A DNA stretch of 64,000 bases, from assembly GCA_016186995.1 (NCBI GenBank), contig JACPKQ010000007.1:52226-116225 (forward strand), written 5' to 3'. The position numbers and the translations under genes are program-made. Positions 3,447 to 62,855 of the stretch are shown here, one piece after another (positions within the stretch are counted from its first letter, which is position 1; each line of letters begins with the position of its first letter). The notes beneath the pieces are model-generated. The model saw nothing but the letters and a program-made list of their open reading frames with translations. It searched no databases and was not told the origin of the DNA. Origin of the DNA: Deltaproteobacteria bacterium (lineage in GTDB: Bacteria; Bdellovibrionota; JACOXK01).

Positions 3447-4256
3447 ATGAAGGAAACGTTTTATAAAAAGGAAATTAAAGTTCATGGCAATGTATATCCT
3501 TCCATTCGACAAGCAGCGCTATATTTTCATCTGAAACCACAACTTGTATGGGCTAGATTGAAGAGAGGAAAATCTATAGACGAAGCATTTTCAAAAGTTT
3601 ACCTCAAGCGTATCGGTAAAGGAAAGCCCTTTTCTATAGAAGGGAATCATTTTGATTCAATTGCGGAAGCGGCAAGGTTTTATGATATAAATGAAAGCAC
3701 AGTTCGACACCGGCTAAAATCTGGATGGTCAAGAAAGCAAGCGTTTGGAATTGTAGGCCGGCCTCGAAAAGACCGCATAAAGATCAAGGTAAATAATATA
3801 GAATATTCTTCACTCACTGAAGCAGCACGCGCTCATAATTTAGCTCCTTCAATTGTTTGGCAAAGACGTCGACGAGGGTGTTCTATAGAAGAATTGTTCT
3901 CAAAAGATTGCTTGCCGTTGAAAGGCAAAAGTCGAACAATTGTCGTACAAGACAAAACATATCCTTCAGCAAAAATCGCAGCTGTAAAGTTTGGTGTTCA
4001 TTATAGCAAAGTACGTTGGCGTCTTAAGAATGGTTGGTCGCCAGAGCAAGCTTGTGGCATTGAGGAACGACCAGTTAAGCAGCGGAGACCTGTTTCATTC
4101 AGAGGTAAACAACATGAATCAATGTCTACTTTTGCACGGTATTACGAAAAAGATCCAAGATTAATTGGTGCGCGGTTAAGACGCGGATTGAGTATTGAGG
4201 AAGCGCTTGATATTAAAGAAAGGAATTATCGATCTAAGCCAATTACCTGTTTATAG
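3447..4256 (+). CDS. Protein made of five tandem NUMOD-like HTH DNA-binding repeats (nuclease-associated modular DNA-binding domain), with no nuclease domain
   Basis: Five roughly 45-aa repeats with the pattern (V/I)xGxxYxSxxxAAxxxxxxxxxVxxRLxxGWSxExA, for example IEGNHFDSIAEAARFYDINESTVRHRLKSGWSRKQAFG. ATG start. The 3' end overlaps the next ORF in another frame. Confidence 0.55.
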   Translation: MKETFYKKEIKVHGNVYPSIRQAALYFHLKPQLVWARLKRGKSIDEAFSKVYLKRIGKGKPFSIEGNHFDSIAEAARFYDINESTVRHRLKSGWSRKQAFGIVGRPRKDRIKIKVNNIEYSSLTEAARAHNLAPSIVWQRRRRGCSIEELFSKDCLPLKGKSRTIVVQDKTYPSAKIAAVKFGVHYSKVRWRLKNGWSPEQACGIEERPVKQRRPVSFRGKQHESMSTFARYYEKDPRLIGARLRRGLSIEEALDIKERNYRSKPITCL

Positions 4257-4980
4257 TGTGACCAATACAAAAGCCGGTAAGCAATATGTTGGCGAGTCCT
4301 CATGTACACTTGAAAAGCGTAGGCAATGGCACATGAAGCAAGTTTACGGTGAAAAGAGACCTGCTGAAGGTAGTTTGCAGGAGGCGATTAAAAGAGATGA
4401 ACCTGAGTATTTTAAATGGAAAGTGCTTGCACGCTGTAGGTCGATAGATCAAGCTAACAGACTCGAACGAAAATTTATCAGAGAGTTTAATACTTCATAC
4501 CCACATGGTTACAATCTTCGGCGAGGTGGGACAGGCATTTCAAAAAAAGGTAAAAAAATATTGGTGAATGGGAAGCCTTTTGACTCTTACAGAGCTGCAG
4601 CTGATGCCCATGGTGTAAATATTGGAACATTTCAGGATAGGTTGTACGCGGGGTATTCACCCGAACAGGCTGCTGGTTTGATTCCGCTTGATAAAGTGCA
4701 TCCAAAATCACGTAAAATTAAAATAGATAATATAGAATATCCAACAATAAAAGATGCTGCTAAAGCTGCTGGTCAGCCTGCAAATAGAGTGAGAAATAGA
4801 ATTCACTCTGGCTGGTCTGTAGAAAAGGCGCTTAAAACACCATTTTCGAGAAGAGATACTCCTGTGAAAATTGATGGTACCACTTATTCATCAATGGGGG
4901 TTGCTGCAAGGAAATTAGGTATTAATTATGACACATTGAGATACAGGCTGAAAAAGCAAAGGAAGAACATGTATGTTTAA
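4195..4980 (+). CDS. GIY-YIG family homing-endonuclease-like protein with three C-terminal NUMOD-like repeats. Either it starts on TTG or it is the frameshifted continuation of 3447-4256.
   Basis: PVYSVTNTKAGKQYVGES...LEKRRQWH...FNTSYPHGYNLRRGG matches the GIY-x10-YIG motif, the conserved Arg and the catalytic Glu region. It is followed by VNGKPFDSYRAAADAHGVNIGTFQDRLYAGYSPEQAAG-type repeats. There is no in-frame ATG upstream of the GIY motif. Confidence 0.6.
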   Translation: MRKRLILKKGIIDLSQLPVYSVTNTKAGKQYVGESSCTLEKRRQWHMKQVYGEKRPAEGSLQEAIKRDEPEYFKWKVLARCRSIDQANRLERKFIREFNTSYPHGYNLRRGGTGISKKGKKILVNGKPFDSYRAAADAHGVNIGTFQDRLYAGYSPEQAAGLIPLDKVHPKSRKIKIDNIEYPTIKDAAKAAGQPANRVRNRIHSGWSVEKALKTPFSRRDTPVKIDGTTYSSMGVAARKLGINYDTLRYRLKKQRKNMYV

Positions 4981-10447: not shown

Positions 10448-12064
10448 TCAATGGATCAGCGCGCAGACTTTCCATGTAGAATCATAGCGCTTGAGATGAA
10501 TAAGAACTTTGTTTTTTGGAAATGACAGTATGGCTCTGTCGGGTGAAATAAGACGAAAGCGCCCGAATTGAAGTAGCGCATCAGCCGTCATATTCGAGGG
10601 GACAACTTTTCGAAAAAAATGAGAGAGTTCATTCGCAATAACATTTCTTCTGGAGAGGCTTTCTTGATGAACACTGTCCAGATAGCGCTGCCTTTTTTTT
10701 CTCTTAACTTCTTCTCGTGAAGTTTCACCCAGTCGATTTAACATCTGAAGCCTTTGTTTCCATTGAAGCAGATTTTGTGTGAGTGTCATGTGCTCTTGTT
10801 GTGTCAGGTTGTTTTTTAACAAATTTTCGATCTGAGAAATCTTGCTCTGACACAACCTTAAATCATTTTCCAACTGATCAAAGTGTTGGTCCACCTGCGC
10901 TTCCATCTCTTGAATTTTTTCTTGTACCGTTTTTGTTTCTGAAAATGCCAGTGGAAACCCATCCAGCTGAATAAAGAGTTCATCTATGGCAACAAATTGA
11001 TCTATAGTGTTAGCATGTAAATGTTCCTTTTGGAGAATGGATAAAAATTTTGTAGAATCGTTTTTTGCCTCTGCACGCAAAGCTTCTTTTTCTTCCAAAG
11101 AAAGTGTATCAAGCGCTTTTTTCCCCTCATCCACTCTCAGACGGCTTACTTCGGTAATTTTGCGAATTATTTTTTCATTTTCATCCCTGATTTGAACGAC
11201 CCCATTGCATTCTTGAACAACTGTGAGTGGGAATAATGAAGGCATCAATGAAAAAACAAAAGTCTTTTCGTTTGCCGCTGTCCCTTCAAATTCAAAGACT
11301 TCCACAGATAGTTTTTTCTTCTCCGCAAGATGATGAACGAAGATGGAATCTAATTTAATCGTTTTAATAGAGAGAAAACTTTTAATGTTTATTTTGGGAT
11401 AGATCTTCCAATCAATAGAAACTTTTTGGGGTTCCTTTTGCCCGGATTTTATCACTTCAAGATCAACAGAAGATTCATGGACTTTTGTCACCTTGATGAC
11501 TTCTCTATAGGGTCGATCTTCGGAGATCTCATATATTACATAATCTCCTTCTTGAACGCCCCCCCATAAATATTCTTTTGAATATTCGAAAGGATAAGAG
11601 ACAGAATCTTTCACATCTTCTTGATGTGTCACAACCTCAATATGTTCTATGGAGCGAAAAATTTCTGCCATGCGAAGATCCGCTTTTAAAAAGCTCTCTT
11701 CAGCCACAACATAGCCACTTAAAATGGCTCCACCGTCTGTAACCACCGCGGCTGCCAATAGGGGTTGGGTGACATCTTTTTCCACAATTTTAAGAGAAGA
11801 AAGATCTTGAAATTCAATTTGAATAAAATCAGCCTCTGATATTTTTTCAAAATCCACATCTCTTGAATAATAGAGACGAATGGGCGAAACAGATTTTTGT
11901 TCAACATCGAAACGAATTATTTTTTGTTCTTCTTGAGGATCTTTCGGTTTTTGAAAAGAGATCTCTACATCATACTGGCCTTCATTAAGAGTTGCTGAAT
12001 ATAAATTTACGGGGACCACAGATAGTGCGCACAATAGTGTCATGAAAAGGACATTCATCGCCAT
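10448..12064 (-). CDS. Secreted coiled-coil protein of unknown function
   Basis: Signal peptide MAMNVLFMTLLCALSVVPVNLYSA. A long Glu/Gln/Leu-rich heptad region lies in the C-terminal half. Confidence 0.4.
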   Translation of the reverse strand: MAMNVLFMTLLCALSVVPVNLYSATLNEGQYDVEISFQKPKDPQEEQKIIRFDVEQKSVSPIRLYYSRDVDFEKISEADFIQIEFQDLSSLKIVEKDVTQPLLAAAVVTDGGAILSGYVVAEESFLKADLRMAEIFRSIEHIEVVTHQEDVKDSVSYPFEYSKEYLWGGVQEGDYVIYEISEDRPYREVIKVTKVHESSVDLEVIKSGQKEPQKVSIDWKIYPKINIKSFLSIKTIKLDSIFVHHLAEKKKLSVEVFEFEGTAANEKTFVFSLMPSLFPLTVVQECNGVVQIRDENEKIIRKITEVSRLRVDEGKKALDTLSLEEKEALRAEAKNDSTKFLSILQKEHLHANTIDQFVAIDELFIQLDGFPLAFSETKTVQEKIQEMEAQVDQHFDQLENDLRLCQSKISQIENLLKNNLTQQEHMTLTQNLLQWKQRLQMLNRLGETSREEVKRKKRQRYLDSVHQESLSRRNVIANELSHFFRKVVPSNMTADALLQFGRFRLISPDRAILSFPKNKVLIHLKRYDSTWKVCALIH

Positions 12065-12204
12065 CTTTATAATCTGTCAAAAAAATTTAGCAATATGAAA
12101 AAATTTCATTGTTTTTTAATCCGTTAGTAAAACTTATTCATTTGAAAAAAACACTATATACTTGATGTCATTGAAAAATTATTTTTTTGACTGTTTTGCT
12201 TAAA

Positions 12205-12220
12205 TGGCACAATCATTGCT
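12205..12220 (+). promoter_or_regulatory. Sigma-54 (RpoN) -24/-12 promoter, TGGCAC-N5-TTGC
   Basis: tGGCACaatcaTTGCt matches the TGGCACG-N4-TTGCW consensus exactly. It lies 55 bp upstream of the GTG start at 12275. Confidence 0.6.
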
Positions 12221-12274
12221 AGTCTGCCTTCGTGGAAACGCCTATTGTAATTTCTGAAAAAATGAGGGGGTAAC

Positions 12275-13582
12275 GTGAAAAAAGTTTTCTTTCAAATCTC
12301 AATGATGCTTTATGTTTCATTAACATTTGTGGGCTGCAACTGGTTTGACAACGATGATTCTAATGATGCTCCTTTTTTATCCACCTTGGGAGGTATTGCA
12401 AGCAGAATACATGATATGCCCCATCCATTTTCTCAGATTAAAACCACAAATGTGAATAACAATGAAATTTTTATAAAAGGCACTGTCAGTCCAGATGGGA
12501 GTACTTTTGAAGATAGGGCTTATAAGTATAAAGATCAAGGTAACGAATATGTTGAGATCAATTTTGCAAGCTCCAGAGAGGATCTTGGAAATGGCAGACA
12601 ACAATTCAGTCAAACGTTGGTATCCGGTCCGGGAGGACCTGTTGTGCCCACGGACTCTGTGCTGATTATTGGCGGAATTACATCGAAGGGTATTTCCAAT
12701 ACAGCTGAATTTTATAATCCCTCTGAAAATGTGATTAAATCTTTAGGGAATTTAAAAGTTGCTCGTTACGGCCACACCGTCACTGAGATCAAAAATTCAG
12801 GGACACCCTTAGATGGACAGTTTTTGGTCGTGGGGGGAATGGGAGTGGGTCAAGGCCTTGTAAGAAATGAGTTGGTTTCAACGATTGAATTGTTTGATCC
12901 TATGACAGGAACCTTTAGCGTTTTAAATGCCCAACTCAAAGTTGGTCGTGAGCAACACACGGCTACGCGTTTGGCAGATGGTCGTGTTCTCATTACAGGC
13001 GGACGAACCTCTAGTGGCGTGAGCAATTCGGGGGAAATTTTTGATCCGGCGACAGCGACATTTACTGAGATTCCCAATGCAATGGCGGATGAACGTGTTT
13101 TTCATACAGCACTCTATTTAGATAATAAAACTCCTACTGATTCAGCAGATGATGCTGTTTTGCTCGCGGGCGGTCAGGATTCCATGGGTTTGGTTAATGA
13201 CTCTGCTGATTTTTTTAATCCTGCAACAGGACTTTTTCAACCGGTCAATAGCATGATTCCGCAGCCCATTTATCAGCATGCTGCCACAGCACTTCCTGCA
13301 ACTTCACCGCATGATGCTGTTTTGACGGGGGGGATGACAAAAATGCCAACCTTTGACGAAAGTTCATCAGGAGTGACTTTACATATCACAAATCAGGTTG
13401 TTGTCTTTGATTACACACATACATCGGCTGGCCCTGACGGATTCTTCACGCAAACCAGAGATATGCTCAAAAAAAGAGCCATGCACAGCACCGATTCTAT
13501 GGGAACCAATAAACTTGTGATTTTGGGGGGTGTCGATGAAACTGCCCTTGCTCACACGACAGGTGAAGAGTACGGATTTTAA
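12275..13582 (+). CDS. Kelch / galactose-oxidase-like beta-propeller lipoprotein
   Basis: The lipobox LTFVGC follows a signal peptide. Six blades are recognisable by LIIGGITSKG, FLVVGGMGVGQG, VLITGGRTSSG, VLLAGGQDSMG, VLTGGMTKMP and LVILGGVDE. Confidence 0.6.
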   Translation: MKKVFFQISMMLYVSLTFVGCNWFDNDDSNDAPFLSTLGGIASRIHDMPHPFSQIKTTNVNNNEIFIKGTVSPDGSTFEDRAYKYKDQGNEYVEINFASSREDLGNGRQQFSQTLVSGPGGPVVPTDSVLIIGGITSKGISNTAEFYNPSENVIKSLGNLKVARYGHTVTEIKNSGTPLDGQFLVVGGMGVGQGLVRNELVSTIELFDPMTGTFSVLNAQLKVGREQHTATRLADGRVLITGGRTSSGVSNSGEIFDPATATFTEIPNAMADERVFHTALYLDNKTPTDSADDAVLLAGGQDSMGLVNDSADFFNPATGLFQPVNSMIPQPIYQHAATALPATSPHDAVLTGGMTKMPTFDESSSGVTLHITNQVVVFDYTHTSAGPDGFFTQTRDMLKKRAMHSTDSMGTNKLVILGGVDETALAHTTGEEYGF

Positions 13583-13682
13583 ATCTTAAGCGAATCTGCT
13601 TTTTATAAATATGACATAGATCATATTATTTCACCTACATGAGCGTACGATTTATAAATCGTTTTCTTTTATTGAGGAGATA

Positions 13683-15353
13683 TTGTTGTTGAAAAAGACG
13701 CGGAGTTTATTAATCACTTTTTCCGGTTATCCTTACACTCCTTCAAGTTTCTTACCTGATAACGGTTTAGCCAATTTAGCCGCATGTTTGAAAGAGGCGG
13801 GACACCAAACCTTAATACTGGACTTTAATACGCCACACACCATGGAAGGTCTTGTCAGTGATGAATGGAAAGAAATAAATCAGCACATTGTAGATGACAT
13901 CTCACAATGGTCCTCCAAAAATACGTCATTTTCAGGAATTCATAAAAAACTAAACAAAATTGATCAGTTATTAACACAAGGTTTTAAGCACATTGCTCAT
14001 CAGATCTGTCAGACTATCGAAAAGGAAAAAATTGATTGGGTTGGGTTGAAAGTATGGAATGGTGATGGCTATACGGCTTCATGCGTCATTGCTAAAATGA
14101 TCAAAAAGAATTTTAAAAATATGCCTATTCTTGCCGGAGGCCCTCAGATCGACTGGTTTGGCCCATTTTTCTTAGAAGTCTCTCCCCATTTTGACTTTGC
14201 TGCATTTGGAGAAGGTGAGCCCACCGTTGTTGCCTTTGCAGAAATGGTATTAGGTCAAAGAAAATTATCTGAGGTTCCAAATCTTTATTATCGTAAAGGT
14301 AAAAAAATTCAGCAAACGCAGGTTGTTCGTGTAAAAAACTTAGATACTATTCCAACGGCTTGTTATGATGAAGATGTTTATCCAGCTCTTTACACTAATC
14401 AAAAAATCAATATTGGTATTTTAGAAGAAAGCCGAGGATGTCCTATTCAGTGTTATTTTTGTGAACACCCAATCAAATCAGGAGCTGTTTTACGCAAGAA
14501 GTCTATTGCAAGAGTTATTGAGGATGTAAAAAATTTTCAAAAAACTCCTGGGTTCCAAGCATATAAATTGGCAGGTTCCTTCACCCCTTCAAAACACATT
14601 CAACAAATAGCAAAAGCTTTATTAGATTTGCCATTTCCAATACAGTATGTGGCTTTTGGCCATCTCAAAGATAGTGGCAACGATTTCGATCTCTTAAAAC
14701 GCTCAGGATGTGTTGCTCTTTTCTTCGGGTTGGAAACGGGAAGTGACCTGATTTTAGATAGTAAAATGAAAAAAGGCTATGAAAGACAACAAGCACTGAA
14801 AGCCCTTAAGGACTGTAAGAATGCAGGTATATTTTCGATCACAAGCATCATTTATCCTTCTGCCGGAGAAACTGAGGAATCCAGACAAGCCACTCTGGAT
14901 TTTATAGAAGAAATTCAGCCAGATTCCATTCCATGTCACTTTCCCATTATTTTACCTCGTACCCGGTGGTGTTTAGAGCCCGAACGATTTGGGTTTTCTT
15001 TTAATGCCCCCTATCATCATATGAAGGATTATCTTTCATTTTTTATTAATTATAAGCCTCGGCTTTTATATCCTCCGGAATTTTGGCCACCTCTGCCGTA
15101 CAAAATTGATGATAAACCTTTTTCGGTGTTTGCGAAGGAAACTTCAAAAATGACACAAACATTGGAAGACAGGGGGCATCTGACATTAATGTCAGATGAG
15201 GTTATGCTTATAGGAAAGCACTCTCAAAAACCATTCAATCACTTTAGAGATGAGTGTCGAAAAGCTCTTTTCTATGGTGATTCACAGAAATTAAAAACGC
15301 TTGTGTCAGATGTTAATTCGAGCCTTAAGCAAATGAAATGTACGATCCCGTAA
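13683..15353 (+). CDS. B12-binding-domain radical SAM enzyme (class B radical SAM)
   Basis: The N-terminal Rossmann-like B12-binding region is LAACLKEAGHQTLILDF. The radical SAM motif CPIQCYFC is Cx3Cx2C. TTG start with GAGGAG RBS. Confidence 0.75.
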   Translation: MLLKKTRSLLITFSGYPYTPSSFLPDNGLANLAACLKEAGHQTLILDFNTPHTMEGLVSDEWKEINQHIVDDISQWSSKNTSFSGIHKKLNKIDQLLTQGFKHIAHQICQTIEKEKIDWVGLKVWNGDGYTASCVIAKMIKKNFKNMPILAGGPQIDWFGPFFLEVSPHFDFAAFGEGEPTVVAFAEMVLGQRKLSEVPNLYYRKGKKIQQTQVVRVKNLDTIPTACYDEDVYPALYTNQKINIGILEESRGCPIQCYFCEHPIKSGAVLRKKSIARVIEDVKNFQKTPGFQAYKLAGSFTPSKHIQQIAKALLDLPFPIQYVAFGHLKDSGNDFDLLKRSGCVALFFGLETGSDLILDSKMKKGYERQQALKALKDCKNAGIFSITSIIYPSAGETEESRQATLDFIEEIQPDSIPCHFPIILPRTRWCLEPERFGFSFNAPYHHMKDYLSFFINYKPRLLYPPEFWPPLPYKIDDKPFSVFAKETSKMTQTLEDRGHLTLMSDEVMLIGKHSQKPFNHFRDECRKALFYGDSQKLKTLVSDVNSSLKQMKCTIP

Positions 15354-15617
15354 TGTCTCAAGGGTTTGAAAGTGAGCTAAATCATCTTCAGCCTCTAATG
15401 AGATAGGTATATTAAACTTGCTATCTACTTTTTCTTCCACCGCGGTGATAATATCGACAAGATCTAAAGAATCGATTGTTTTCTTGGGGCCAAATAATTC
15501 AGTATCAAGGGATTTTTGGAGTTTACTTCCTTCAAAACTGTTTTCATTGAACTCATCCACCACATCATAAATGAGCTGTGTCAAACTTTCTTTAGTGAAA
15601 TTCGAAAATTTAGCCAT
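15306..15617 (-). CDS. Discrete acyl carrier protein
   Basis: MAKFSNFTKESLTQLIYDVVDEF...GPKKTIDSLDLVDIITAVEEKV contains the DSL phosphopantetheine-attachment Ser. RBS AAGGAAAG precedes the ATG at 15617. It is divergent from the KAS III gene. The 3' end overlaps the radical SAM gene by 48 nt. Confidence 0.65.
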   Translation of the reverse strand: MAKFSNFTKESLTQLIYDVVDEFNENSFEGSKLQKSLDTELFGPKKTIDSLDLVDIITAVEEKVDSKFNIPISLEAEDDLAHFQTLETLRDRTFHLLKARINI

Positions 15618-15710
15618 ATCTTCTTTCCTTTTTTTTAAATATTTTAACACGCACTTAATATTGACGCAATTTTATTTATATGAAAAAGTCTCCAAGAGAA
15701 GGTTATTGTT

Positions 15711-16721
15711 GTGAATATAAAAATTAAAGCAATAGAATATTATTTGCCTGAAAAAACACTCAGTAATTGCGAGCTCGACAAAGAAAACCCTAGCTGGAGA
15801 ATGAAAACAGTTGAAGCTCGAACCGGTATTTTAAAGCGCCACATAGCAACGGAAGATGAAACAGCTTTAGACCTTGCTTTTAAAGCCTGTCAAAAGCTAT
15901 TTGAAAAACATGATGGTCTTCGACATCAGATTGACGGCATTCTCTTTTGCACACAAAGCCCTGATTACGTCATGCCTCAAAATGCATGTATCTTACACAA
16001 ACTTTTAGAATTACCTGAAAATACATTTGCTGTGGATATTAACATGGCATGTTCAGGGTATATCTACACTTTAAGTATTGCACGCGGATTAATTCACACG
16101 GGAATAGCCCACAATGTTCTGCTCATAAATGCTGACACTTATTCCAAATATATTCATGATAAGGATCGAGCCACACGCGTCATTTTTGGAGATGGGGGTG
16201 CTGTTTCTTGGATCACTTCTGCCGAATCTCACGAAGGTATTATCGATATGCAATGTGCTACGTCTGGAGCAAATTATGATAAATTTATGATCAAAGCAGG
16301 CGCTTGTCGTATACCCAAATCAGAAGAGACATCTGTGCCAACAACGGATAGCTCAGGAAATGTTCACACAATGGAAACCATTGAAATGGATGGAGCTGGA
16401 ATATTAAAATTTGTTTCTGAAAAAGTGCCAAAACAAGTAGTATCAATTTTAGAGCGCAATAACTACACAATAGAAGATGTAGATTTATTTATCTTTCACC
16501 AAGCTAGTAAAATGGTCTTAGATTCTTTATCCCGATTATTGAGAATTAAAAAAGAAAAAGTTTTTTCCAATCTTCAAAACATAGGTAATACTGTTTCCGC
16601 ATCTATTCCCATTGCACTCAAAGATGCCATGGAGGAAGGAAAAATTTCAAAAGGGGATACTGTGTTAATTTCGGGCTTTGGAGTCGGCCTTTCATGGGGT
16701 ACTGCACTTATAAAAATATAA
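15711..16721 (+). CDS. 3-oxoacyl-ACP synthase III (FabH-like KAS III) family condensing enzyme
   Basis: The Cys-His-Asn triad context is present: NMACSGY (Cys), FHQASKM (the HQAN motif) and NIGNTVSASIPIAL (the GNTSAAS motif). GTG start. Confidence 0.8.
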   Translation: MNIKIKAIEYYLPEKTLSNCELDKENPSWRMKTVEARTGILKRHIATEDETALDLAFKACQKLFEKHDGLRHQIDGILFCTQSPDYVMPQNACILHKLLELPENTFAVDINMACSGYIYTLSIARGLIHTGIAHNVLLINADTYSKYIHDKDRATRVIFGDGGAVSWITSAESHEGIIDMQCATSGANYDKFMIKAGACRIPKSEETSVPTTDSSGNVHTMETIEMDGAGILKFVSEKVPKQVVSILERNNYTIEDVDLFIFHQASKMVLDSLSRLLRIKKEKVFSNLQNIGNTVSASIPIALKDAMEEGKISKGDTVLISGFGVGLSWGTALIKI

Positions 16722-16736
16722 AAGGAGAATAAGTCT

Positions 16737-17537
16737 ATGTTGACAAGAATTGCTGAAGACAAACAAGTGATGGATCATGTGGAATCGGTCAATGCTTACG
16801 ATGAAGGGGGCAAAAAGGGAAACCTTCTTCCCACGTATTATCTAGCCGCTGATATTATTTGTCAGTTGGCACCACAAGAGGGACACGCTGTGGATATTGC
16901 CTGCGGTAATGGGTTGCTTACTTTGACATTAGCACAATCTTTGCCCAACTTTAAATTTCTGGGATTAGAACTTTCTTCCACCATGCTTGAAAGAGCACAA
17001 GAAAATTCTAAATTATTTAACAAGCACGTTGAATTCACTCAAGCAAGCATGACTGACTTAAGTTCAATTCCTTCACATTCATCGGACTTAACACTGATCA
17101 CTTATGCTCTGCACCACACTGATTCAGAGAAAGATGCGCGAAGCATATTGTCTGAAATAAATCGCATTACAAAGAAAGACGGAGCTATTTTTATTATGGA
17201 TCTGATTCGTCCTCGAAGTCATATGATATATAAATTTATTTCAAAGGCACTTGGAACAAAAAATCCATATTTACAAAAAGACTTTGAAGCTTCTCTTAGA
17301 GCATCTTATAACACCTCAGAATTTCGAAGGCTCCTAGAATCCGCAGGTTTGACGAACCTGACATATCATCGTGATCTTATTTTACACATGGCTTTTAGAC
17401 CGCATCGCCAGGCTCAAAAAAACTCACCTGTTTTTTTCAATCAAGGTGAAAACTTACTTAAAACAAAAATGATTTACAACACATCAAGGCTTATTTTTAA
17501 CTTGAAGAAAAGGCTCCATCCACGATGGGAAGTGTAA
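16737..17537 (+). CDS. Class I SAM-dependent methyltransferase
   Basis: Motif I is AVDIACGNGLLT. Motif post-I is LGLELS. Motif II is IFIMDLI. Confidence 0.75.
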   Translation: MLTRIAEDKQVMDHVESVNAYDEGGKKGNLLPTYYLAADIICQLAPQEGHAVDIACGNGLLTLTLAQSLPNFKFLGLELSSTMLERAQENSKLFNKHVEFTQASMTDLSSIPSHSSDLTLITYALHHTDSEKDARSILSEINRITKKDGAIFIMDLIRPRSHMIYKFISKALGTKNPYLQKDFEASLRASYNTSEFRRLLESAGLTNLTYHRDLILHMAFRPHRQAQKNSPVFFNQGENLLKTKMIYNTSRLIFNLKKRLHPRWEV

Positions 17538-19198
17538 CGCACCCGGTATTGATTAAAAATGTGCTTCGGTTTGTTTCAGAGCAAAAAACGAACGTTTATT
17601 GTGAACTTGATCACAGGAAATTTCAGGGAACTCTTGCAATCCAAAAGGAAAACCTTGAAATGAGTATTCCTGGTATGAAACCAGACTCTTCTTGTATAAA
17701 AACCGGCGATACAATGACCGTTTCCTTTCAGGCGGGCGGTCAGGTTTATTCTTTTGTAACAACAATAGTAAGTATGACGTCACATGAACAATTTTTAACT
17801 TCTTATCCATCTAAAATCTCTAAAATGGGGCGTAGAAAATGCCCCAGATATGCTATTCCAAAGGATATTCATTTTTTTATCTCTTTCAGCGATCCGCAAG
17901 ATACATCCACAAAGATGACGGGAAGAGTAATTGATTTTAATACAACCGGCTTAAGGTTCAAGTTAGATCAGCACAAACTTAAACTTTCACAATATAAGTC
18001 TCCTATAATGTATACGCTTCATTTGTCTCCAAAGAAAATAATTCAAGTTAAGGGAGAGGTGAAGCACGAGATTGTTCATAATGATTCCTATTATTATGGG
18101 CTTTCTTTTTTAAATCTAAAATTAAGTGAGCAACAAGAGCTTTTTCAATACATCCTTGATACATTTTATCCTTCCCTGACTCATCGATGGGAAGTTGAGT
18201 TTGATAAATTCTGGGGACTTCTGGAAGATTCTGGATATCTTGGTGAAAAAGACAGTGTTTTTTTTCAAGGAATGCAGTGCCAAGCTCAAAAAGTATGGGG
18301 GACACTTGCCAAAGATCCATTTAAAATTTCTCAGGATCTGGTCTATGTCAGAAATGGCAAACCACTAGGCACCATTTCTGCAACGCGACTCTATGAAAAA
18401 AGCTGGCTTTTCCACCAATTGGCCGTTCATCCTAAAAATATTGCAGAAGGAACGGTTCATGCTGACCTCTATCTGGGTGCTTTTGGGGATTTTATCCTTA
18501 ACAACCCACACATAGATTTTTTAATGGGATTCTACAATATTCATAATACATGGCATCGAAAATTTTTTGACTATTTCGGTCAAACAGCTTCAGATGCTTC
18601 TAAATTCTATGTTGAGCATTTTCACCTGTTTGAGCCCCTCATACCTGAGAGTCCCTATGTTGACCCCTCTTATCCATGGGAGCTTGCAACAGCCGTTGGT
18701 GAAGAAAAGAAATGGATTCTCAAGCACATTCAAAAATGTGTCCCTATGATTATACAAGAAGCGTGTAATTTAGATGCTACCTCATTTGAAATTCCTAAAA
18801 CCCGGAAAACTTATATTGAAAAGGGTCTTGCACGAGATCGGAAACTTCTGATCTTAAAAAAAGATAGAGAAATCGTTGCTTTTGCACTTTTAGAAAACGC
18901 AACGACAGGCATTAATATATTCAATCTACTTGATCAGGCTTTTTTGTTTTATCTGGAAGAAACGCCACAGATTCAAACACTCCTTGTGAAGGGAGTTATG
19001 AATCACTACCGATCGCTTGGAAAAAAATCTTTTCTCTTACTTGCTCAAAAAGAAAACCTGGAACCCTATAGGACACTGAGGTTACAAGAGATATGTATTC
19101 TCAAGAGAGCTGTTTTTCATAGAGATCTTTTTTATGATTATCGCGACTATCTTTTTCTCATGTTCTCAAAAAGCTTGCACCTTTCTGCTCTTGTTTAA
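17525..19198 (+). CDS. PilZ-domain protein (YcgR-N-like plus PilZ) with an uncharacterised C-terminal domain of about 330 aa
   Basis: The PilZ c-di-GMP-binding motifs are RRKCPR (the RxxxR motif) and DFNTTGLRF (the D/NxSxxG motif). The C-terminal domain has no recognisable motif; it might be an acyltransferase. Confidence 0.5.
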   Translation: MGSVTHPVLIKNVLRFVSEQKTNVYCELDHRKFQGTLAIQKENLEMSIPGMKPDSSCIKTGDTMTVSFQAGGQVYSFVTTIVSMTSHEQFLTSYPSKISKMGRRKCPRYAIPKDIHFFISFSDPQDTSTKMTGRVIDFNTTGLRFKLDQHKLKLSQYKSPIMYTLHLSPKKIIQVKGEVKHEIVHNDSYYYGLSFLNLKLSEQQELFQYILDTFYPSLTHRWEVEFDKFWGLLEDSGYLGEKDSVFFQGMQCQAQKVWGTLAKDPFKISQDLVYVRNGKPLGTISATRLYEKSWLFHQLAVHPKNIAEGTVHADLYLGAFGDFILNNPHIDFLMGFYNIHNTWHRKFFDYFGQTASDASKFYVEHFHLFEPLIPESPYVDPSYPWELATAVGEEKKWILKHIQKCVPMIIQEACNLDATSFEIPKTRKTYIEKGLARDRKLLILKKDREIVAFALLENATTGINIFNLLDQAFLFYLEETPQIQTLLVKGVMNHYRSLGKKSFLLLAQKENLEPYRTLRLQEICILKRAVFHRDLFYDYRDYLFLMFSKSLHLSALV

Positions 19199-24259: not shown

Positions 24260-27200
24260 TTAAGCTGCTTTTTTAAGCTGTTCTTCTTTAATGATACGTT
24301 TTCGGGGAATTCTAAAGGTGAATGTAGAACCTTTTCCATAAACACTTTTGACACAGATATTTCCTCCATGCAATGCAACAATCCTCTTGCAAAGAAAAAG
24401 TCCTAATCCAGACCCTTTTTCAGACTTTTCTACAGGCATTTCTGGAGTTTGGAACCTGTCAAAAATATGAGATATTTTTTCTTGCGAAATCCCTTGTCCT
24501 GTATCTGTAACAGAAACCTCAACAAACTCTTCTCCATTTTCTTTGATAGCTCTAGCTTTGAGAGTGATGGTACCACCCAATGAAGTAAATTTTAAAGCAT
24601 TGATTAAGAGATTTTCAATAACTTCTCGAATACGATCTGGATCACACGTCATGTTTTCAACAAGATCCTCTATTTTAAGATTTATGTGAATACCTCGACT
24701 CTGGGCAATTATTTTAGTATCTTCAAAAACATTCCTGATAAGCTCTTTCAGAAAAACATTTTTATATTGGAGAGAAAATTTTTCAGAATCCAGCTGAGAG
24801 ATGTTAAGAAATTGCTCTGTTAGTCTCGTCATTCTTTGTGTTTGTCGTGATATAATATCTAAAAACTTCCCATGATGTCTTGCCGGCATGGTGGAGAAAG
24901 ATTCAATACAATGTTGAATAATCATGAGTGGATTTTTAAGGTTATGGGAACAAAGTCCAAAGAATACATCTTTAAGGTTAGTAAGTGTTTTGAGTTTTTC
25001 GTAAGCCTGTTTAAGCTCTTCCATTTTCTCTTGAATAACTTCATGTGTCTTTGTAAGTTCTTGAGTTCTTAAATTTACCTTTTCTTCCAAAGATCGACGG
25101 AGTTGATCTAATTCATTGAAAGCCAGAGAGTTTTGAATAGCAATAGCTACTTGTGTCGCAAATACATTAAGTATTTCTAAATCATCTTTTGTAAAAAGGT
25201 TTGTAATAATTCTATTATCAATATAAATGATTCCCAATGTTTCTTTTTCAACTTTTAAAGGCACGCACAGAACAGATCTTAGCCCGTATTTGGTAACAGA
25301 TTTACTTGTCTTAAATTGAGGATCTGTTTGTGCATCGATGACAACAATGCCTTTGGCTTCCTTATAGACCTTTTGGAGTATTTTTTGACTTAAAGAGAAT
25401 TCATCCCCTGAGACTTGTGAAGTATCCACATGTCTTGAAATACGAATTTGAAGTTTTCCATCATTATCTTTTAACATGATAAAACCCCTCTCCCCTCCAA
25501 AGAGTTCAATAAGCGATTCCATCACGCTTGAAAGTAAAGTGGGCAGGTGACGAATGGAACTTAAATAATTACTGACTTTGATAATGGTTTCTAATCGACG
25601 ATTCCGCTTAACTTTTTCCAGCTGCATATCTTTTCTCTGAATGAGTTGTTGATACTTTGAGCAGAGAAGATTGAGATGATACTGATCATCACACTCCTCA
25701 AAAATATCTTTGGCAAGGTAAAGATAATGTATGGCGTTAGATTCAGCTTGTGCAAGAAGAAGTTCAGCATAGGAAAAATAGGTTTGTCCTAATAGATTCT
25801 TTGCCCCCAGCTTGTGTAGTGATTCAATGCTTTTTTTATAAACTCGCTTTGCTTGTGCATGTTTTCCAAAGGCTGTACAGATATCCCCATAAACGCGTAA
25901 AGCCCAACCACCATGGTTTGGATACCGCTGAACTTTTAAAATCTGTTTTCCCATTTTCCAGACTTTCTTTTTAAGTTCTTTATCTTTTTTTTCTTTCCAT
26001 TTTTCAAGATAGGCTTCCGCTAAAGTAAGTGGGGCACCTTGAACATAGCCGATGCGTATTTTGAATTTTTTGATCAGTCCTGTTGCCTTTTCTCCATATT
26101 CAATAGCCTTCTCAAAATTATGAAACAGCAAATACACCGCTGCCGCTGTGTCATAAAGTATTATTTGCCCAATGACATCCTTAATCTCATCAATCATTTT
26201 CAGAGTTTGATGGATACACTTAAATGCCTTTTCTTTATTTCCTCTTAAAGCTTCAAGAAGACCTATCCATGGTAAGATTTTTGTCCTAAAGGAAATATCC
26301 TGGACTTCGGTAGCTATATTGAACGCTATTTTGAAATTTTCTAAAGCTTTTCGTAAATCTCCTTTGATCCACCAACACAACGCTTTAAAACCGATTGCAT
26401 TAGAAAGCTCCCACGCATCACCAATTTTCTCACACCCCTCAATGGCTTTCTCTGTACACTCAATGGCTTTATCCGGATATCCATTATGATAATAGAAAAT
26501 ACCCATACAAGAATGAGTTTGGGCAACACCAAAGACATCGGCATTTTTTATATGAATAGCCAGGGCTTTTCTAGCATAATGAAGAGCTCTTTTCTTAAAA
26601 GGGGTTACTGCCAAATACACACTGTAAATTGATGAAGCTTGAGCTACTTCTTTTTCTTGTCCAACATCATCGGCAACATTTAAATAGCGCTGACAAGAAA
26701 GAAAGCCCTTTATGGGAGTGACAAACCAGTAAGTTAAACTAAGGGCCCGATGGATCCTATTTTGTTCTTGAAAGATTTTTGCCTGTTTTGAATGCTTTTT
26801 TCTTCCAAAGAAATAACGAGGGAATCGTCTATGAAAAAAGCGCATCATGAAAGTTTTTAAAAATGCCAAGACAAGCCCCGGGGTAGAAGAAGGCATTCTT
26901 GCGCCAAGAAATTGCAGGGCTTTTTCAGCATTTTCTATAGATTTTTCATAAGCCCCTTTTCGGAAAAAAAGATCTCCGCGTTTTCGATACAATCGGCACT
27001 TATCTAAAACTGACACTTTTTTTAGAAGAAGATCAGAGTAAATCTTTTCTGCGTCGCTATAATTTCCAATAAGAAGATTGATATCTGCTTTTTCTTCTAA
27101 AACTTCATCTTTAAGAACAAACTCATCTGACCGCATGAATGTTAATGCTCGATTGAAAAAAACAAGGGCTTCTTGTGTTGCATAAGAATGCGTAGCAACT

Positions 27201-29407
27201 TTGCCAGCACGGACCGAGTAATGAACAATTTTTTCAGGAATTTTAGCATGAAAAAAATGGTGAGCTAGTTTGTAAATGGCAAGGGGTCGATCTTTGTCTG
27301 CACTTTTTTCGATGGCAGTGCCCACAAGCTTGTGAATATGTTTCTTTTGTTCGTCTGGAACTTCTTGATAAATAGCTTCCTGAATACGGTCGTGAAGAAA
27401 ATTATAAGTTCCCATATGAAATAGCGATTCTTCTATGAGTTGTGCTTTTTTGGCTTCTTCTAAAGAGTGGTGCACCTCCAGCGGATTGGGATAAACATGC
27501 ATGAGGAGGTCTTGTGTCCACTCCTCTCCGATTGCAGAAGCAATTCTGAGAATTTTCTTAGTGACAGGAGTCACTCGTTTTAATCGTTCGATAAAGAAAC
27601 TAAGAATCTCTTCCGGAAACGGAGTCTTAAGAAGTTGTATCTTATTGAGCTGCCATTTATTTTCCTTGAGATAGAGAATTTCTTTCTCAAATAGCGTCCT
27701 GAATATCTGGGTAATATACAAAGGATTTCCTTCACTTCGAGAGTAGATATGTTTTCCAAGCTCCTCTACCCAAGAGGTTTGGGTCATTAAAATCTCATGA
27801 CAAAGCTCAACAATATCATTTTCTTTCAAAGGAGAGAGCTTTATTTCCATTGTTTTTTCAAACTTTTTAAACTCTTGTGAAAATGATTCTAACCATTCTG
27901 GCGCTTCTGAGGGACGGTAAGTGATCATAAGTTGAATCGGGGTGTGATCAACAGAAGATACTGTTTTCCGAAGCATCTGAAGTGTTTCATGGTCTACGCC
28001 GTGAAGATCATCGAGAAACAGAATGAGAGGATGGACAGAAGCTATAGCTTTCCACAAGGAATTAACACAGTTAAAAAGACGTTCTCTCGCTCTTTCTGGA
28101 GAAAGAGGGGAAATGGGAACAGTTGTTTCATTACATATCAGTTTGAGTTCAGGAACAAATTCCAAAACAACTTCCAACAAATCTTCGAGCTCATCTTCTA
28201 TTGCTTTTTTAATCTGATCTCGGGTTTTTTTAGAAAAGTTTGCATAAAGTTGAACATACTCTCGTATTGCTTGCTGTATCGGTGCATAAGGAAAACGTGT
28301 TAATAAAACATGTCCTTTCCCAGAAATAATAATACATTGGGAAAGCGTAGCATAAGAACGAAGTTCATTTAAAATTCGTGTTTTACCAATGCCAGCCTCT
28401 CCAAGGAGAAACGTGACACTTCCTTTGTTTTGCTTGAGTTGATTCACTTGTGAACGTAGCGTATTTATAACATTCTTCCTACCCATAAGGGGTAGCTCAT
28501 GCATTAATTTTCCTGTTCGATCCACTTTTCCAAGAGGAAAGTTTTCCATACTTCTTCCTTCCTTCAACTTCTGAAAAACAATCTTTAAATCATGAATGAG
28601 ACCTTCTCCAGTTTGATAGCGTTCTGAAGGGTCTTTAGAAAGGAGTTTAAAAACTATTTTTTCGAGTATTTCAGGAACTTGCTTATTTTTTTGTTGAGTC
28701 AGTGAGGGTGGTTGTTTGGTTAAATGATCATGGATAAGCACACCTGCATCTTGAGACTGAAAAGGAGGGGCACCGCTGAGAAATTCATACAAAATAACTC
28801 CAAGCGAATAAAGATCTGAACGAACATCACTGATGTGCCGGAAAAGTCCTGTCTGCTCTGGAGGGATATAGGCAAGAGAACCAACGAGTGCCTCTTTTTC
28901 AAAATAATCATCAATGGTGAGAAGTCTGGCCAAGCCAAAGTCTAAAATTTTTATATTTCCCTTTGAATCAAAAATAATGTTTTCAGGTTTAAGATCGCGA
29001 TGAATAATAAGATTCTGATGGAGATAATTAATAATTTCTATGAGATCAATGGTCCATTTGATGGATTCTTCTATACTTATCTTATGTCTACTTAAGATTT
29101 CCCGGAGTGTGAGCCCCTCAATATATTCTGTAACAAAATAAAGGCAATCTTGAACCTCTCCAAGATCTAATATTTTGACGACACCGGGATGAGAGAGTTT
29201 AAGAAGAATGTGCATTTCTTCTTTCAACCGAAAGACATTTTTCTCCCCCTGATGCTTAAGATCAAGATATTTTAAAATGACCTTGTTTTCAGTTTTAAGA
29301 TCTGTGGCCAAGTATACAAAACTCCCCCCCGACTCTTGAAGAAGCTTTTCTAAAGAATATCGATTATCAATAATATGATTTTTCTTTAAAGCCTGCACCT
29401 TCGCCAT
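24260..29407 (-). CDS. Giant multidomain signalling protein (1715 aa): Ser/Thr protein kinase, AAA+/NACHT-like ATPase, TPR repeats, GAF, HisKA and HATPase_c (HstK-like dual kinase)
   Basis: The Ser/Thr kinase subdomains are VILKYL, HRDLKPENIIF, DFGLAR and PPE. The P-loop is FLLGEAGIGKTR and Walker B is LILFLDDLH. A TPR-like helical array occupies roughly residues 700-1150. GAF is FGGERGFIMLKD. The H box is CSHNLKNPL. The ATP lid is TDTGQGIS...GSGLGLFLC. Confidence 0.85.
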   Translation of the reverse strand: MAKVQALKKNHIIDNRYSLEKLLQESGGSFVYLATDLKTENKVILKYLDLKHQGEKNVFRLKEEMHILLKLSHPGVVKILDLGEVQDCLYFVTEYIEGLTLREILSRHKISIEESIKWTIDLIEIINYLHQNLIIHRDLKPENIIFDSKGNIKILDFGLARLLTIDDYFEKEALVGSLAYIPPEQTGLFRHISDVRSDLYSLGVILYEFLSGAPPFQSQDAGVLIHDHLTKQPPSLTQQKNKQVPEILEKIVFKLLSKDPSERYQTGEGLIHDLKIVFQKLKEGRSMENFPLGKVDRTGKLMHELPLMGRKNVINTLRSQVNQLKQNKGSVTFLLGEAGIGKTRILNELRSYATLSQCIIISGKGHVLLTRFPYAPIQQAIREYVQLYANFSKKTRDQIKKAIEDELEDLLEVVLEFVPELKLICNETTVPISPLSPERARERLFNCVNSLWKAIASVHPLILFLDDLHGVDHETLQMLRKTVSSVDHTPIQLMITYRPSEAPEWLESFSQEFKKFEKTMEIKLSPLKENDIVELCHEILMTQTSWVEELGKHIYSRSEGNPLYITQIFRTLFEKEILYLKENKWQLNKIQLLKTPFPEEILSFFIERLKRVTPVTKKILRIASAIGEEWTQDLLMHVYPNPLEVHHSLEEAKKAQLIEESLFHMGTYNFLHDRIQEAIYQEVPDEQKKHIHKLVGTAIEKSADKDRPLAIYKLAHHFFHAKIPEKIVHYSVRAGKVATHSYATQEALVFFNRALTFMRSDEFVLKDEVLEEKADINLLIGNYSDAEKIYSDLLLKKVSVLDKCRLYRKRGDLFFRKGAYEKSIENAEKALQFLGARMPSSTPGLVLAFLKTFMMRFFHRRFPRYFFGRKKHSKQAKIFQEQNRIHRALSLTYWFVTPIKGFLSCQRYLNVADDVGQEKEVAQASSIYSVYLAVTPFKKRALHYARKALAIHIKNADVFGVAQTHSCMGIFYYHNGYPDKAIECTEKAIEGCEKIGDAWELSNAIGFKALCWWIKGDLRKALENFKIAFNIATEVQDISFRTKILPWIGLLEALRGNKEKAFKCIHQTLKMIDEIKDVIGQIILYDTAAAVYLLFHNFEKAIEYGEKATGLIKKFKIRIGYVQGAPLTLAEAYLEKWKEKKDKELKKKVWKMGKQILKVQRYPNHGGWALRVYGDICTAFGKHAQAKRVYKKSIESLHKLGAKNLLGQTYFSYAELLLAQAESNAIHYLYLAKDIFEECDDQYHLNLLCSKYQQLIQRKDMQLEKVKRNRRLETIIKVSNYLSSIRHLPTLLSSVMESLIELFGGERGFIMLKDNDGKLQIRISRHVDTSQVSGDEFSLSQKILQKVYKEAKGIVVIDAQTDPQFKTSKSVTKYGLRSVLCVPLKVEKETLGIIYIDNRIITNLFTKDDLEILNVFATQVAIAIQNSLAFNELDQLRRSLEEKVNLRTQELTKTHEVIQEKMEELKQAYEKLKTLTNLKDVFFGLCSHNLKNPLMIIQHCIESFSTMPARHHGKFLDIISRQTQRMTRLTEQFLNISQLDSEKFSLQYKNVFLKELIRNVFEDTKIIAQSRGIHINLKIEDLVENMTCDPDRIREVIENLLINALKFTSLGGTITLKARAIKENGEEFVEVSVTDTGQGISQEKISHIFDRFQTPEMPVEKSEKGSGLGLFLCKRIVALHGGNICVKSVYGKGSTFTFRIPRKRIIKEEQLKKAA

Positions 29408-35544: not shown

Positions 35545-35559
35545 TGGCATCTGATTTGC
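35545..35559 (+). promoter_or_regulatory. Sigma-54 -24/-12 promoter candidate, TGGCAT-N5-TTGC
   Basis: tTGGCATctgatTTGCa. It lies 68-86 bp upstream of the lipoprotein gene start at 35627/35645. Confidence 0.5.
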
Positions 35560-35626
35560 AGTTTTAATGAACTAAGACTGGATCCTTCGACGAGCTCAGG
35601 ATGACAGAGAGGGTCGCGGGAATGAC

Positions 35627-39102: not shown

Positions 39103-39903
39103 ATGTCACTCAGAAAGTCGATATTTGTTTTAGTGACTGTATGTGCTGGATTGTTTTATCAGCCTGTGAATGCAGCGGAAAGTGTGGGCCTGTTAGGTAG
39201 CACTCTTCGTGAGCATGCACGAGAAATCCACAGAGCTTCAGAAAGAATGGTAGCTCAAGCCGAAGCCTACAAAGGCTATTACGATTCTGATAACTTTCAT
39301 GTAGTTTATCAGTTAAGAGACTTAGAAAGCTCAGCCAGACGCTTCCGTAGCCGGGTAGATTCGTGGTTGCAAGATCCTTCTCTTGCCTACAACGAATTTT
39401 ATGATGTTGCAGGCGATCTTGAAGATGTAAAAATGGTAGCTTCACGAGCTACTTTTTTTCGTTTCATTATGGATGATTTGAATCGAGCAAGTGAAAGCGT
39501 AAGAGAGCTTCGTTTGTATTATTATGGTTATGGTTACCGTCATTGGGATGATCATTATAGAGATGATCGTGAAAGACGTCGCCATGAAGAACGTGAACGT
39601 CGTGAGCGTGAAAGAAGAGACCATTGGGATCGAGATGGACATCGCTACGATCGAGATCGTCATGAACGTGAAAGAAGAGATCGCGAACGTTGGGACAGAG
39701 ACCGTCGTGATCGTGAAGAGCGCGACAGAAATGAACGTGAACGTCGTGAAAGAGAAAGACGTGAACGTGAAGATCGTGAAAGGCGCGATCGTGATAACCG
39801 AGATCGAGACCGTTGGGATAGAGACAGAGATCGTGATCGCGGAGATCGAGACCGTCGCGATCGTGAAGACCGTGAAAGACGCGATAGAAATCGCCATAGA
39901 TAA
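39103..39903 (+). CDS. Secreted protein with an N-terminal domain paralogous to 38315-39076 and a roughly 120-aa C-terminal Arg-Asp/Arg-Glu dipeptide-repeat tail
   Basis: Signal peptide MSLRKSIFVLVTVCAGLFYQPVNA. The tail reads RDDRERRRHEERERRERERRDHWDRDGHRYDRDRHERERRDRERWDRDRRDRE...RDRNRHR. The underlying DNA at 39538-39900 is an imperfect cgtga(a/t)cg(t/a)-type tandem repeat. Confidence 0.6.
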   Translation: MSLRKSIFVLVTVCAGLFYQPVNAAESVGLLGSTLREHAREIHRASERMVAQAEAYKGYYDSDNFHVVYQLRDLESSARRFRSRVDSWLQDPSLAYNEFYDVAGDLEDVKMVASRATFFRFIMDDLNRASESVRELRLYYYGYGYRHWDDHYRDDRERRRHEERERRERERRDHWDRDGHRYDRDRHERERRDRERWDRDRRDREERDRNERERRERERREREDRERRDRDNRDRDRWDRDRDRDRGDRDRRDREDRERRDRNRHR

Positions 39904-39926
39904 GATCAAGATACGTAATTGGAAAG

Positions 39927-40015
39927 CTGTCATCGCGAGGGAATGAAATGACCGTGGCGATCTCATCGCAGTAGCGATGGGCATGGCGCAGCACCCTTAC
40001 CTCGCAATGACGAGG
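39927..40015. repeat. Copy of a dispersed palindromic repeat family with imperfect inverted termini CTGTCATCGCGAGG ... CCTCGCAATGACGAGG
   Basis: The termini are at 39927-39940 and 40000-40015. Internal small palindromes include gcgatctcatcgc. Confidence 0.55.
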
Positions 40016-48981: not shown

Positions 48982-48996
48982 TGGCACATGAATTGC
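48982..48996 (+). promoter_or_regulatory. Sigma-54 -24/-12 promoter, TGGCAC-N5-TTGC
   Basis: gTGGCACatgaaTTGCt. It lies 100 bp upstream of ATG 49096. Confidence 0.55.
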
Positions 48997-49095
48997 TATA
49001 TTAGCGAGATGTGATACAAGTCGTGCTTGTGTCACTATAAAATAGTGCCGTTTTAGGGCATTTTGTAAACAAAATGTTAATTTTCAGAATATATT

Positions 49096-50622: not shown

Positions 50623-50697
50623 GGGTGAGTGATGGGACTTGAACCCACGGCCGCTGGAGCCACAATCCAGAGCTCTACCAACTGAGCTACACTCACC
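50623..50697 (-). tRNA. tRNA-His (anticodon GTG) with the encoded G-1 residue
   Basis: The minus-strand sequence is GGTGAGTG TAGCTCAGTTGGTAGAGC TCTGGATTGTGGCTCCAG CGGCC GTGGGTTCAAGTCCCAT CACTCACC. This gives an 8-bp acceptor stem including G-1:C73. Anticodon loop tTGTGGc. T-loop TTCAAGT. CCA is not encoded. Confidence 0.9.
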
Positions 50698-60692: not shown

Positions 60693-60839
60693 AATTGACA
60701 GAAAAGTAATCAAAATGATACTGTGAATTTAGGGTTATGGTTGTGTTGCTGTTCTCAATTTTTCAATCGTACGTGTAGAAGTAGGGTTGCTTGTTGATTA
60801 CTTTTCATCCCTTATGGAGAGGAGACGGGCAAGACTATT

Positions 60840-62806: not shown

Positions 62807-62821
62807 TGGCACGTGAGTTGC
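62807..62821 (+). promoter_or_regulatory. Sigma-54 -24/-12 promoter, TGGCAC-N5-TTGC
   Basis: gTGGCACgtgagTTGCa. It lies 35 bp upstream of ATG 62856 and immediately downstream of the sigma-54 activator gene. Confidence 0.6.
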
Positions 62822-62855
62822 AAAGAAAACCCCTATCTTGAAAAAAGGGGGGACC

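Follow-up and report, generated by a model that had tools for sequence, protein, structure and literature searches.

A probable sigma-54 promoter conserved upstream of a Kelch lipoprotein gene in uncultivated low-GC 'Deltaproteobacteria'

A sigma-54 type promoter element that stands at the head of a run of genes raises the question of which of these genes it serves, and whether it is a promoter at all. In this study, we have followed such an element at 12205-12220 of a 64,000-nucleotide stretch of DNA from an uncultivated deltaproteobacterium (assembly GCA_016186995.1, contig JACPKQ010000007.1; the whole stretch is called the window below). Downstream of the element, between 12275 and 19198, lie genes for a Kelch-repeat lipoprotein, a B12-binding radical SAM enzyme (rSAM), an acyl carrier protein (ACP)-like protein, KAS III, a class I methyltransferase (MTase) and a PilZ-domain protein, and the original prediction took the element to be the promoter of this entire string. 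Using a number of different approaches, we arrive at another assignment: the element is very probably a real and conserved sigma-54 promoter, and it would serve the Kelch lipoprotein gene, which belongs to a rare module of two divergent genes.

The element at 12205-12220 and its conservation

The element, TGGCACAATCATTGCT (TGGCAC-AATCA-TTGCT), is on the + strand at 12205-12220. Its core, TGGCAC-AATCA-TTGC, spans 12205-12219, with the GG at 12206-12207 and the GC at 12218-12219, and the T at 12220 completes TTGCT; the motif and its exact spacing had thus been read correctly to the base in the original prediction. The distance of 55 bp to the first gene was equally accurate, since exactly 55 nt lie between the C of TTGC (12219) and the Kelch GTG (12275). 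The sigma-54 consensus is reportedly YTGGCACGrNNNTTGCW, as compiled by Barrios and colleagues in 1999.

The motif is far more frequent than expected. Three exact copies of TGGCAC-N5-TTGC are found in the 64-kb window (12205, 48982 and 62807) against an expectation of 0.07 from 100 dinucleotide-preserving shuffles, none of which reached three copies. With one mismatch allowed, 35545 (TGGCAT...TTGC) joins the list along with two sites that are implausible, and at this stringency the window is not enriched (6 matches vs 2.5 +/- 1.7 expected). The two implausible matches were dismissed as chance, the one at 2891 (TGGCCC) being antisense inside a gene and the one at 16930 (TAGCAC) lying inside the methyltransferase gene and lacking the GG. 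To place the sites relative to genes, we used a gene table in which 91.6% of the window is coding and defined as promoter-competent any intergenic position at most 150 nt upstream of a co-oriented start. This category makes up 2.8% of the position/strand space of the window, and all four TGGCA[CT]-N5-TTGC[AT] sites fall into it (placement P about 6e-7), their distances to the following start codon being 55, 67, 99 and 35 nt.

Apart from the element at the Kelch gene, the four comprise TGGCATctgatTTGCA (35545-35560, +), 67 nt upstream of an uncharacterised lipoprotein gene (35627; lipobox LWGC), TGGCACatgaaTTGCT (48982-48997, +), 99 nt upstream of a second one (49096; lipobox LVSC), and TGGCACgtgagTTGCA (62807-62822, +), 35 nt upstream of a third (ATG 62857; lipobox ILGC). 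With the Kelch protein (FVGC), the products of the genes after all four sites start with a signal peptide ending in a lipobox cysteine, and the Kelch promoter would therefore be part of an envelope or surface programme. Surface lipoproteins may thus be what sigma-54 chiefly switches in these bacteria.

The window also encodes an NtrC-type enhancer-binding protein (EBP; 60840-62222, +) with REC, Sigma54_activat (245.7 bits), AAA-lid and HTH_8 domains, which carries the Walker A motif GESGTGK and a GSFTGA loop. It forms a pair with a PAS histidine kinase (58707-60692, +), and this pair (58707-62222) lies directly upstream of the site at 62807; a two-component activator, then a sigma-54 promoter, then the target gene is a typical arrangement. 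The loop variant GSFTGA is listed among those retaining activator function in the EBP set of Desulfovibrio vulgaris (PMC4641369). As an NtrC-type EBP is encoded in the window, the organism is expected to use sigma-54, and it is from this EBP that we infer the presence of sigma-54 (rpoN) in the genome.

The gene that follows the element (12275-13582, +) encodes, from a GTG start, a Kelch-repeat beta-propeller lipoprotein of 435 amino acids (Pfam Kelch_1/4/6; NCBI protein HYW47_01800), in a metagenome-assembled genome of 36% GC. With this protein and its divergent neighbour as queries, we retrieved the contigs encoding homologues. They represent five further independent lineages, or six with the window: L009/L018 (GCA_040960375.1 and GCA_040960315.1, the latter being the sister genome), L010 (same sequence as L013), L011 (same as L012 and L014; 'Deltaproteobacteria bacterium GWA2_38_16'), L015 (GCA_016193165.1) and L017 (GCA_016186165.1). 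Scans of genome and metagenome contigs with the alignment of the partner protein re-found only L011 (L012, L014) and L010 (L013), which sets six lineages as the maximum for the Kelch promoter. Another contig, L016 (P0243), stops ~30 nt short of the expected Kelch promoter and is uninformative in this respect.

In all six independent lineages, a -24/-12 element is found upstream of the Kelch orthologue, 16-55 nt before the start, and the exact spacing is kept. The sequences are TGGCACacttaTTGCT in L009 (28 nt before the ATG), TGGCATaaaggTTGCT in L010 (about 30 nt before the start), TGGCATaggggTTGCT in L011 (16 nt), TGGCATatatgTTGCT in L015 and TGGCACataagTTGCT in L017 (37 nt). The Kelch proteins of the four lineages from which the protein was retrieved are 37-63% identical to that of the window, with Cys21 invariant in the alignment of the orthologues (A3), and the intergenic DNA around the promoter is unalignable between lineages, the window-L009 pair excepted (blastn, alignment A1). 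A relaxed pattern,.GG[CT]A[CT]-N5-T[TC]GC., matched 12 times in about 190 kb, counting both strands, and 6 more times in four loci added later; the sites that were placed against called genes are all upstream of a gene and all co-oriented with it. Altogether, the comparative set from this uncultivated lineage amounts to 15 promoters of the sigma-54 type. The base after TTGC, which the search pattern left unconstrained, is A or T in 15/15 of them, and the base after TGGCAC is A, not G, in 11. The Kelch lipoprotein gene is, as judged from these comparisons, the conserved target of the promoter at 12205-12220. We also noted a sigma-54 type element, TGGCACagtccTTGCT, at 304 (-) of L018, ~35 nt upstream of a gene whose product has an N-terminus, MKKISLS..., resembling a signal peptide.

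By standard sigma-54 geometry, transcription would start at 12231 (+), about 12 nt past the C of TTGC, and the predicted Kelch leader would be ~44 nt long. The leader does not fold better than shuffled sequence (z = +0.72), and an Rfam scan of the window found no family in it, the sole match being a tRNA at 50624-50696. A strong Shine-Dalgarno sequence, GAGGGGG (12260-12266, +), precedes the GTG by 8 nt, and an equivalent one, AGGAGG, is seen in L009, L015 and L017.

An upstream activator sequence had been suggested as a further check on the promoter, and the search for it gave one candidate, a conserved intergenic block at 12065-12125, whose 45-nt core is 95.6% identical to L009 (A1, blastn) and which contains a direct repeat (D1) with 47-bp spacing. 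With its centre at about -105 to -165 relative to the predicted start of the Kelch transcript, this block is the sole candidate enhancer. It is also homologous by position to the sigma-54 promoter of the divergent gene in other lineages and is equally explicable as that gene's promoter. The region 12065-12204 is 80% A+T and holds eight A/T tracts; no helical phasing was found among the tracts upstream of the Kelch promoter.

A number of observations weigh against a sigma-54 promoter at this position. The base 3' of TGGCAC is an A in the window element, where the consensus has G. The rpoN gene was not found in the window, nor an RpoN box in 255 kb of related DNA, and no EBP gene lies beside the Kelch module in any lineage examined. 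Furthermore, cross-lineage blastn of the intergenic regions returned no common block besides the promoter elements, the four window promoters have 1 word in common vs a control median of about 7, and a scan of 12065-12204 for the IHF (integration host factor) consensus gave no site. The missing rpoN and the enhancer searches would fit a motif that arose by chance in AT-rich DNA between genes or that belongs to another regulator, with the Kelch gene transcribed from a sigma-70-like promoter, TTGACT(12187)-N18-AATCAT(12216), which matches in 9/12 bases and overlaps the site. We give this explanation very little credence. Its hexamers are not conserved in the orthologous regions of L009-L017, where the -24/-12 element is, and sigma-70-like matches around the promoter are no commoner than in shuffles (25 vs 21.1 +/- 3.6). 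It would also leave aside the enrichment, the placement, the exact spacing in six of six lineages and the EBP encoded in the window, which together are strong evidence for a functional and selected sigma-54 promoter. On this point the original prediction very probably holds; what it had proposed as the target is a separate matter.

The divergent partner gene and its predicted promoter

On the other side of the intergenic region, a gene on the minus strand (10448-12064) encodes a secreted protein of 531-538 amino acids that belongs to a rare family. The family has no Pfam or NCBIfam match, and just 6 clusters were found in 5.8 billion proteins. Across loci the partner protein has 511-599 amino acids and is 32-58% (alignment A2) or 37-58% (A5) identical to that of the window. 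Its predicted structure is poor (mean pLDDT 55, pTM 0.33), only a central coiled coil being confident. The gene is head to head with the Kelch gene in every locus long enough for both (L009-L011, L015, L017 and L018).

In four lineages the partner gene has a -24/-12 element of its own. At L010 7673(-), L011 7576(-), L015 4969(+) and L017 4195(+), an element of the form TGGCAT/TGGTAT-N5-TTGCTTAyTTTT lies ~15 nt before the ATG, which implies that the partner transcript, if started there, would be almost leaderless. The -24 elements of the two genes stand back to back, separated by 82 bp in L015 and by 235-394 bp elsewhere, and at the short distance seen in L015 a conventional enhancer would hardly fit between them. 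On the partner side of the window and L009, TTGCT is kept and the GG of the -24 is lost (ATTTTT in place of TGGCAY); here, TTGCTA-N16-TATAAA may act as a sigma-70 promoter instead.

Some partner-side sequences have features of their own. At 455-478 of L016, the partner promoter reads TGGCAT-ATATATACG-TTGC, with a 9-nt spacer vs the expected 5 (an extra ATAT relative to L017). Either the assembly is wrong at this AT repeat, or the promoter is inactivated or variable. Between the two promoters of L017, a hairpin with ~22-nt arms is found at 4122-4180, and in L011 (7590-7760) and L016 (300-450) the equivalent inverted repeat flanks a GC-rich island (~100-170 nt) in AT-rich DNA. An inserted element and a structured RNA are both possible readings of this island.

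The genes downstream and the reach of the transcript

How far would a transcript from 12231 extend? According to the original prediction, the promoter heads a single operon from 12275 to 19198 (Kelch, rSAM, ACP, KAS III, MTase, PilZ), which would place a lipid or natural-product pathway under EBP control. Five + strand genes do follow the promoter with short gaps: after the Kelch gene come the rSAM gene (13683-15353, Pfam), the KAS III gene (15711-16721, Pfam), the MTase gene (16737-17537, Pfam) and a gene for a 557-amino-acid protein with an N-terminal PilZ domain (cyclic di-GMP binding) and a large uncharacterised C-terminal part (17525-19198). In addition, no strong terminator is predicted between the Kelch and rSAM genes, and sigma-54 control of natural-product genes has a precedent (PMC7910581), so that a full operon, even if true, would not be unprecedented.

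The string is not wholly co-directional, since the minus strand carries the ACP-like gene (15306-15617, or to 15650). This gene has a good ribosome-binding site before its ATG and a 48-nt convergent overlap with the 3' end of the rSAM gene, and the six best NCBIfam matches of its product are all acyl- or peptidyl-carrier proteins, weak as they are (E about 3e-3); no + strand open reading frame (ORF) longer than 50 amino acids exists in 15354-15710. A transcript from 12231 would have to cross this gene in antisense to reach KAS III, making antisense ACP RNA on the way, and the KAS III-MTase-PilZ genes (15711-19198, +) would therefore need a promoter of their own.

Gene order in the relatives also argues against the single operon. 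In none of the five other lineages is the Kelch gene followed by rSAM, KAS III or methyltransferase genes; L009/L018 have a convergent suf/Fe-S operon at this place, L010 has a second Kelch paralogue, and L011, L015 and L017 have unrelated convergent genes. In GCA_040960315.1, the Kelch module is located at 281-303 kb of an 863-kb contig (L018), and the orthologues of rSAM (63% identity), MTase and PilZ (44%) are on a separate 516-kb contig. There, genes for a haem-oxygenase-like protein and a FadL-like porin precede the rSAM gene, the PilZ gene adjoins the methyltransferase gene and that of a convergent histidine kinase, and no sigma-54 motif was found in 17.6 kb. MTase, PilZ and the histidine kinase are thus conserved as a separate unit, and the rSAM gene, as described below, keeps its own conserved upstream block. 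Taken together, we consider transcription of the full string from 12231 highly improbable. The 'cluster' is, as judged from conserved gene order, three separately conserved units that lie side by side, namely the sigma-54/Kelch module, the rSAM gene, and the minus-strand ACP with KAS III-MTase-PilZ and the convergent histidine kinase, and the adjacency of the Kelch promoter to the rSAM/ACP/KAS III genes is, among the lineages compared, specific to this genome.

A shorter transcript, in which the Kelch and rSAM genes are co-transcribed in this genome only, the enzyme having been captured by a lineage-specific rearrangement and nothing further being included, is a serious possibility to which we give slightly less than an even chance. 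The two genes are separated by a same-strand gap of 100 nt (13583-13682, +) that lacks a convincing intrinsic terminator, so that read-through into the rSAM gene is possible: its hairpins are no more stable than those of shuffled sequence (whole gap z = -0.29; best local hairpin -4.9 kcal/mol, z = -0.96), and a separate ribosome-binding site, GAGGAG, serves the rSAM gene. On the other hand, a weak AT-rich hairpin followed by TTTTCTTTTATT (13646-13671) could terminate some of the transcripts. The gap also contains, at ~13608-13634, a block (TGA.ATAGATC; ...TGACATAGATC/ATATTATTTCA) with a conserved counterpart ahead of the rSAM orthologue in the sister genome (alignment A4; L003 7915-7960), where it overlaps the 3' end of the FadL-like gene. 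This conservation despite a different upstream gene, along with a sigma-70-like match at 13602-13629, suggests that the rSAM gene has its own signals, the block being possibly the promoter or operator of the enzyme.

The rSAM protein itself has full-length homologues (33-46% identity) in Elusimicrobia, Omnitrophota, Armatimonadota and others, and belongs to a widespread unnamed B12-rSAM family whose gene neighbourhood is not conserved. A first scan of genome contigs with this protein alone gave no relative. Since it scores below every NCBIfam equivalog cut-off (highest match ApyD, 100.7 bits vs 750; 'ladderane-type' lipid rSAM 81.9 vs 360), no specific pathway can be assigned to it. L011 (1002-2519 and 4519-5979) and L015 (1-1110 and 6719-8272) also have B12-rSAM genes of other subfamilies, at a distance of one to three genes from the Kelch module; they were rejected as orthologues of the window rSAM, as 20-22% identity indicates the same superfamily only. 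In L007, the rSAM homologue adjoins a 1950-amino-acid protein similar to a 1715-amino-acid multidomain sensor of the window (24260-29407, -; Ser/Thr kinase, AAA_16, TPR, GAF and HisKA/HATPase domains).

Based on these results, our model of the locus remains a sigma-54 promoter of the Kelch gene and not of the cluster, because the linkage to the latter is not conserved. Sigma-54 RNA polymerase would bind TGGCAC-N5-TTGCT as a closed complex, which an ATP-hydrolysing EBP, encoded elsewhere in the genome, would remodel, transcription then starting near 12231 and yielding a Kelch mRNA with the short leader and strong ribosome-binding site described above. The promoter would be one half of an old divergent module that pairs a rare secreted protein of ~540 amino acids with the Kelch lipoprotein. 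A rearrangement particular to this genome would have put the B12-rSAM gene 100 nt downstream with no clear terminator in between, so that partial read-through may reach it, and neither the antisense ACP-like gene nor the KAS III-methyltransferase-PilZ unit would be driven from 12205-12220. The annotation can accordingly be corrected, so that the promoter goes with the gene for the Kelch lipoprotein and with the partner divergent from it, and not with rSAM/ACP/KAS III. The mechanism of sigma-54 as it is understood is left unchanged by this.

More tentatively, and with distinctly less confidence than in the promoter itself, we propose that the ancestral arrangement was bidirectional, with a pair of sigma-54 promoters of which the element is the one that survives. 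The pair would have served a rare envelope module, made of the Kelch lipoprotein and a secreted beta-rich coiled-coil protein, which would be restricted to one small clade of uncultivated 'Deltaproteobacteria' of low GC content from groundwater. According to this scenario, the -24 elements lie as close as 82 bp in some lineages, with a near-leaderless partner transcript, the module belongs to a sigma-54 regulon dominated by lipoproteins (4/4 window sites), and a rearrangement has hooked the B12-rSAM gene onto the Kelch transcript in the present genome.

Two other regions of the window are unrelated to the module. The two neighbouring ORFs at 3447-4980 (+) have DNA-binding motifs of the NUMOD1/I-TevI type as well as a weak GIY-YIG match, and look like homing-endonuclease-like genes in a chromosomal context. 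At 39103-39994, ORFs of more than 100 amino acids overlap on both strands (39103-39903 +, 39442-39984 -, 39467-39994 - and 39524-39946 +); the + strand ORF of this region has no Pfam match.

Comparison with known sigma-54 systems

Sigma-54 promoters of the canonical -24/-12 type include glnAp2 and pspA. Like these, the window element has the invariant GG and GC, the exact spacing, TGGCAC and TTGCT; the sites at the Kelch genes and in the window are intergenic, 16-99 nt before a start, and an NtrC-type EBP is encoded in the same genome. Unlike them, the predicted promoters mostly have A rather than G after TGGCAC (11/15 sites), and neither an IHF site nor a recognisable upstream activator sequence was found.

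In Borrelia, the control of lipoproteins runs through RpoS, unlike in the window, where the promoters would act directly on the lipoprotein genes. The Borrelia Rrp2-RpoN pathway is cited by Francke et al. (2011, PMC3162934), who link sigma-54 to the exterior of the bacterial cell, with lipoproteins, lipids and envelope components among its associations. Our findings agree with this theme, since the conserved target is predicted to be a lipoprotein and four of the four window promoters precede lipoprotein genes.

The statement in the original prediction that sigma-54 does not normally govern biosynthetic clusters is outdated. Direct control of natural-product genes by sigma-54 promoters and by the EBP Nla28 is documented in Myxococcus xanthus, and bioinformatic studies before that had put forward this kind of regulation in more general terms (PMC7910581). 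There are clear differences between the two cases: the M. xanthus promoters are mostly intragenic and inside polyketide synthase/nonribosomal peptide synthetase clusters, whereas the window promoter is intergenic and its association with rSAM and KAS III genes is not conserved.

Finally, the divergent arrangement can be set beside a known system. The hyc and hyp genes of Escherichia coli, under FhlA, have divergent back-to-back sigma-54 promoters with a common intergenic regulatory region. The module resembles them in that both of its genes have outward-facing -24/-12 elements in L010, L011, L015 and L017. It differs from them in the -24 elements of L015, which are just 82 bp apart, in a partner start codon only ~15 nt after TTGCT, and in the window and L009, where the GG on the partner side has been lost and the Kelch side would be the half that was kept.

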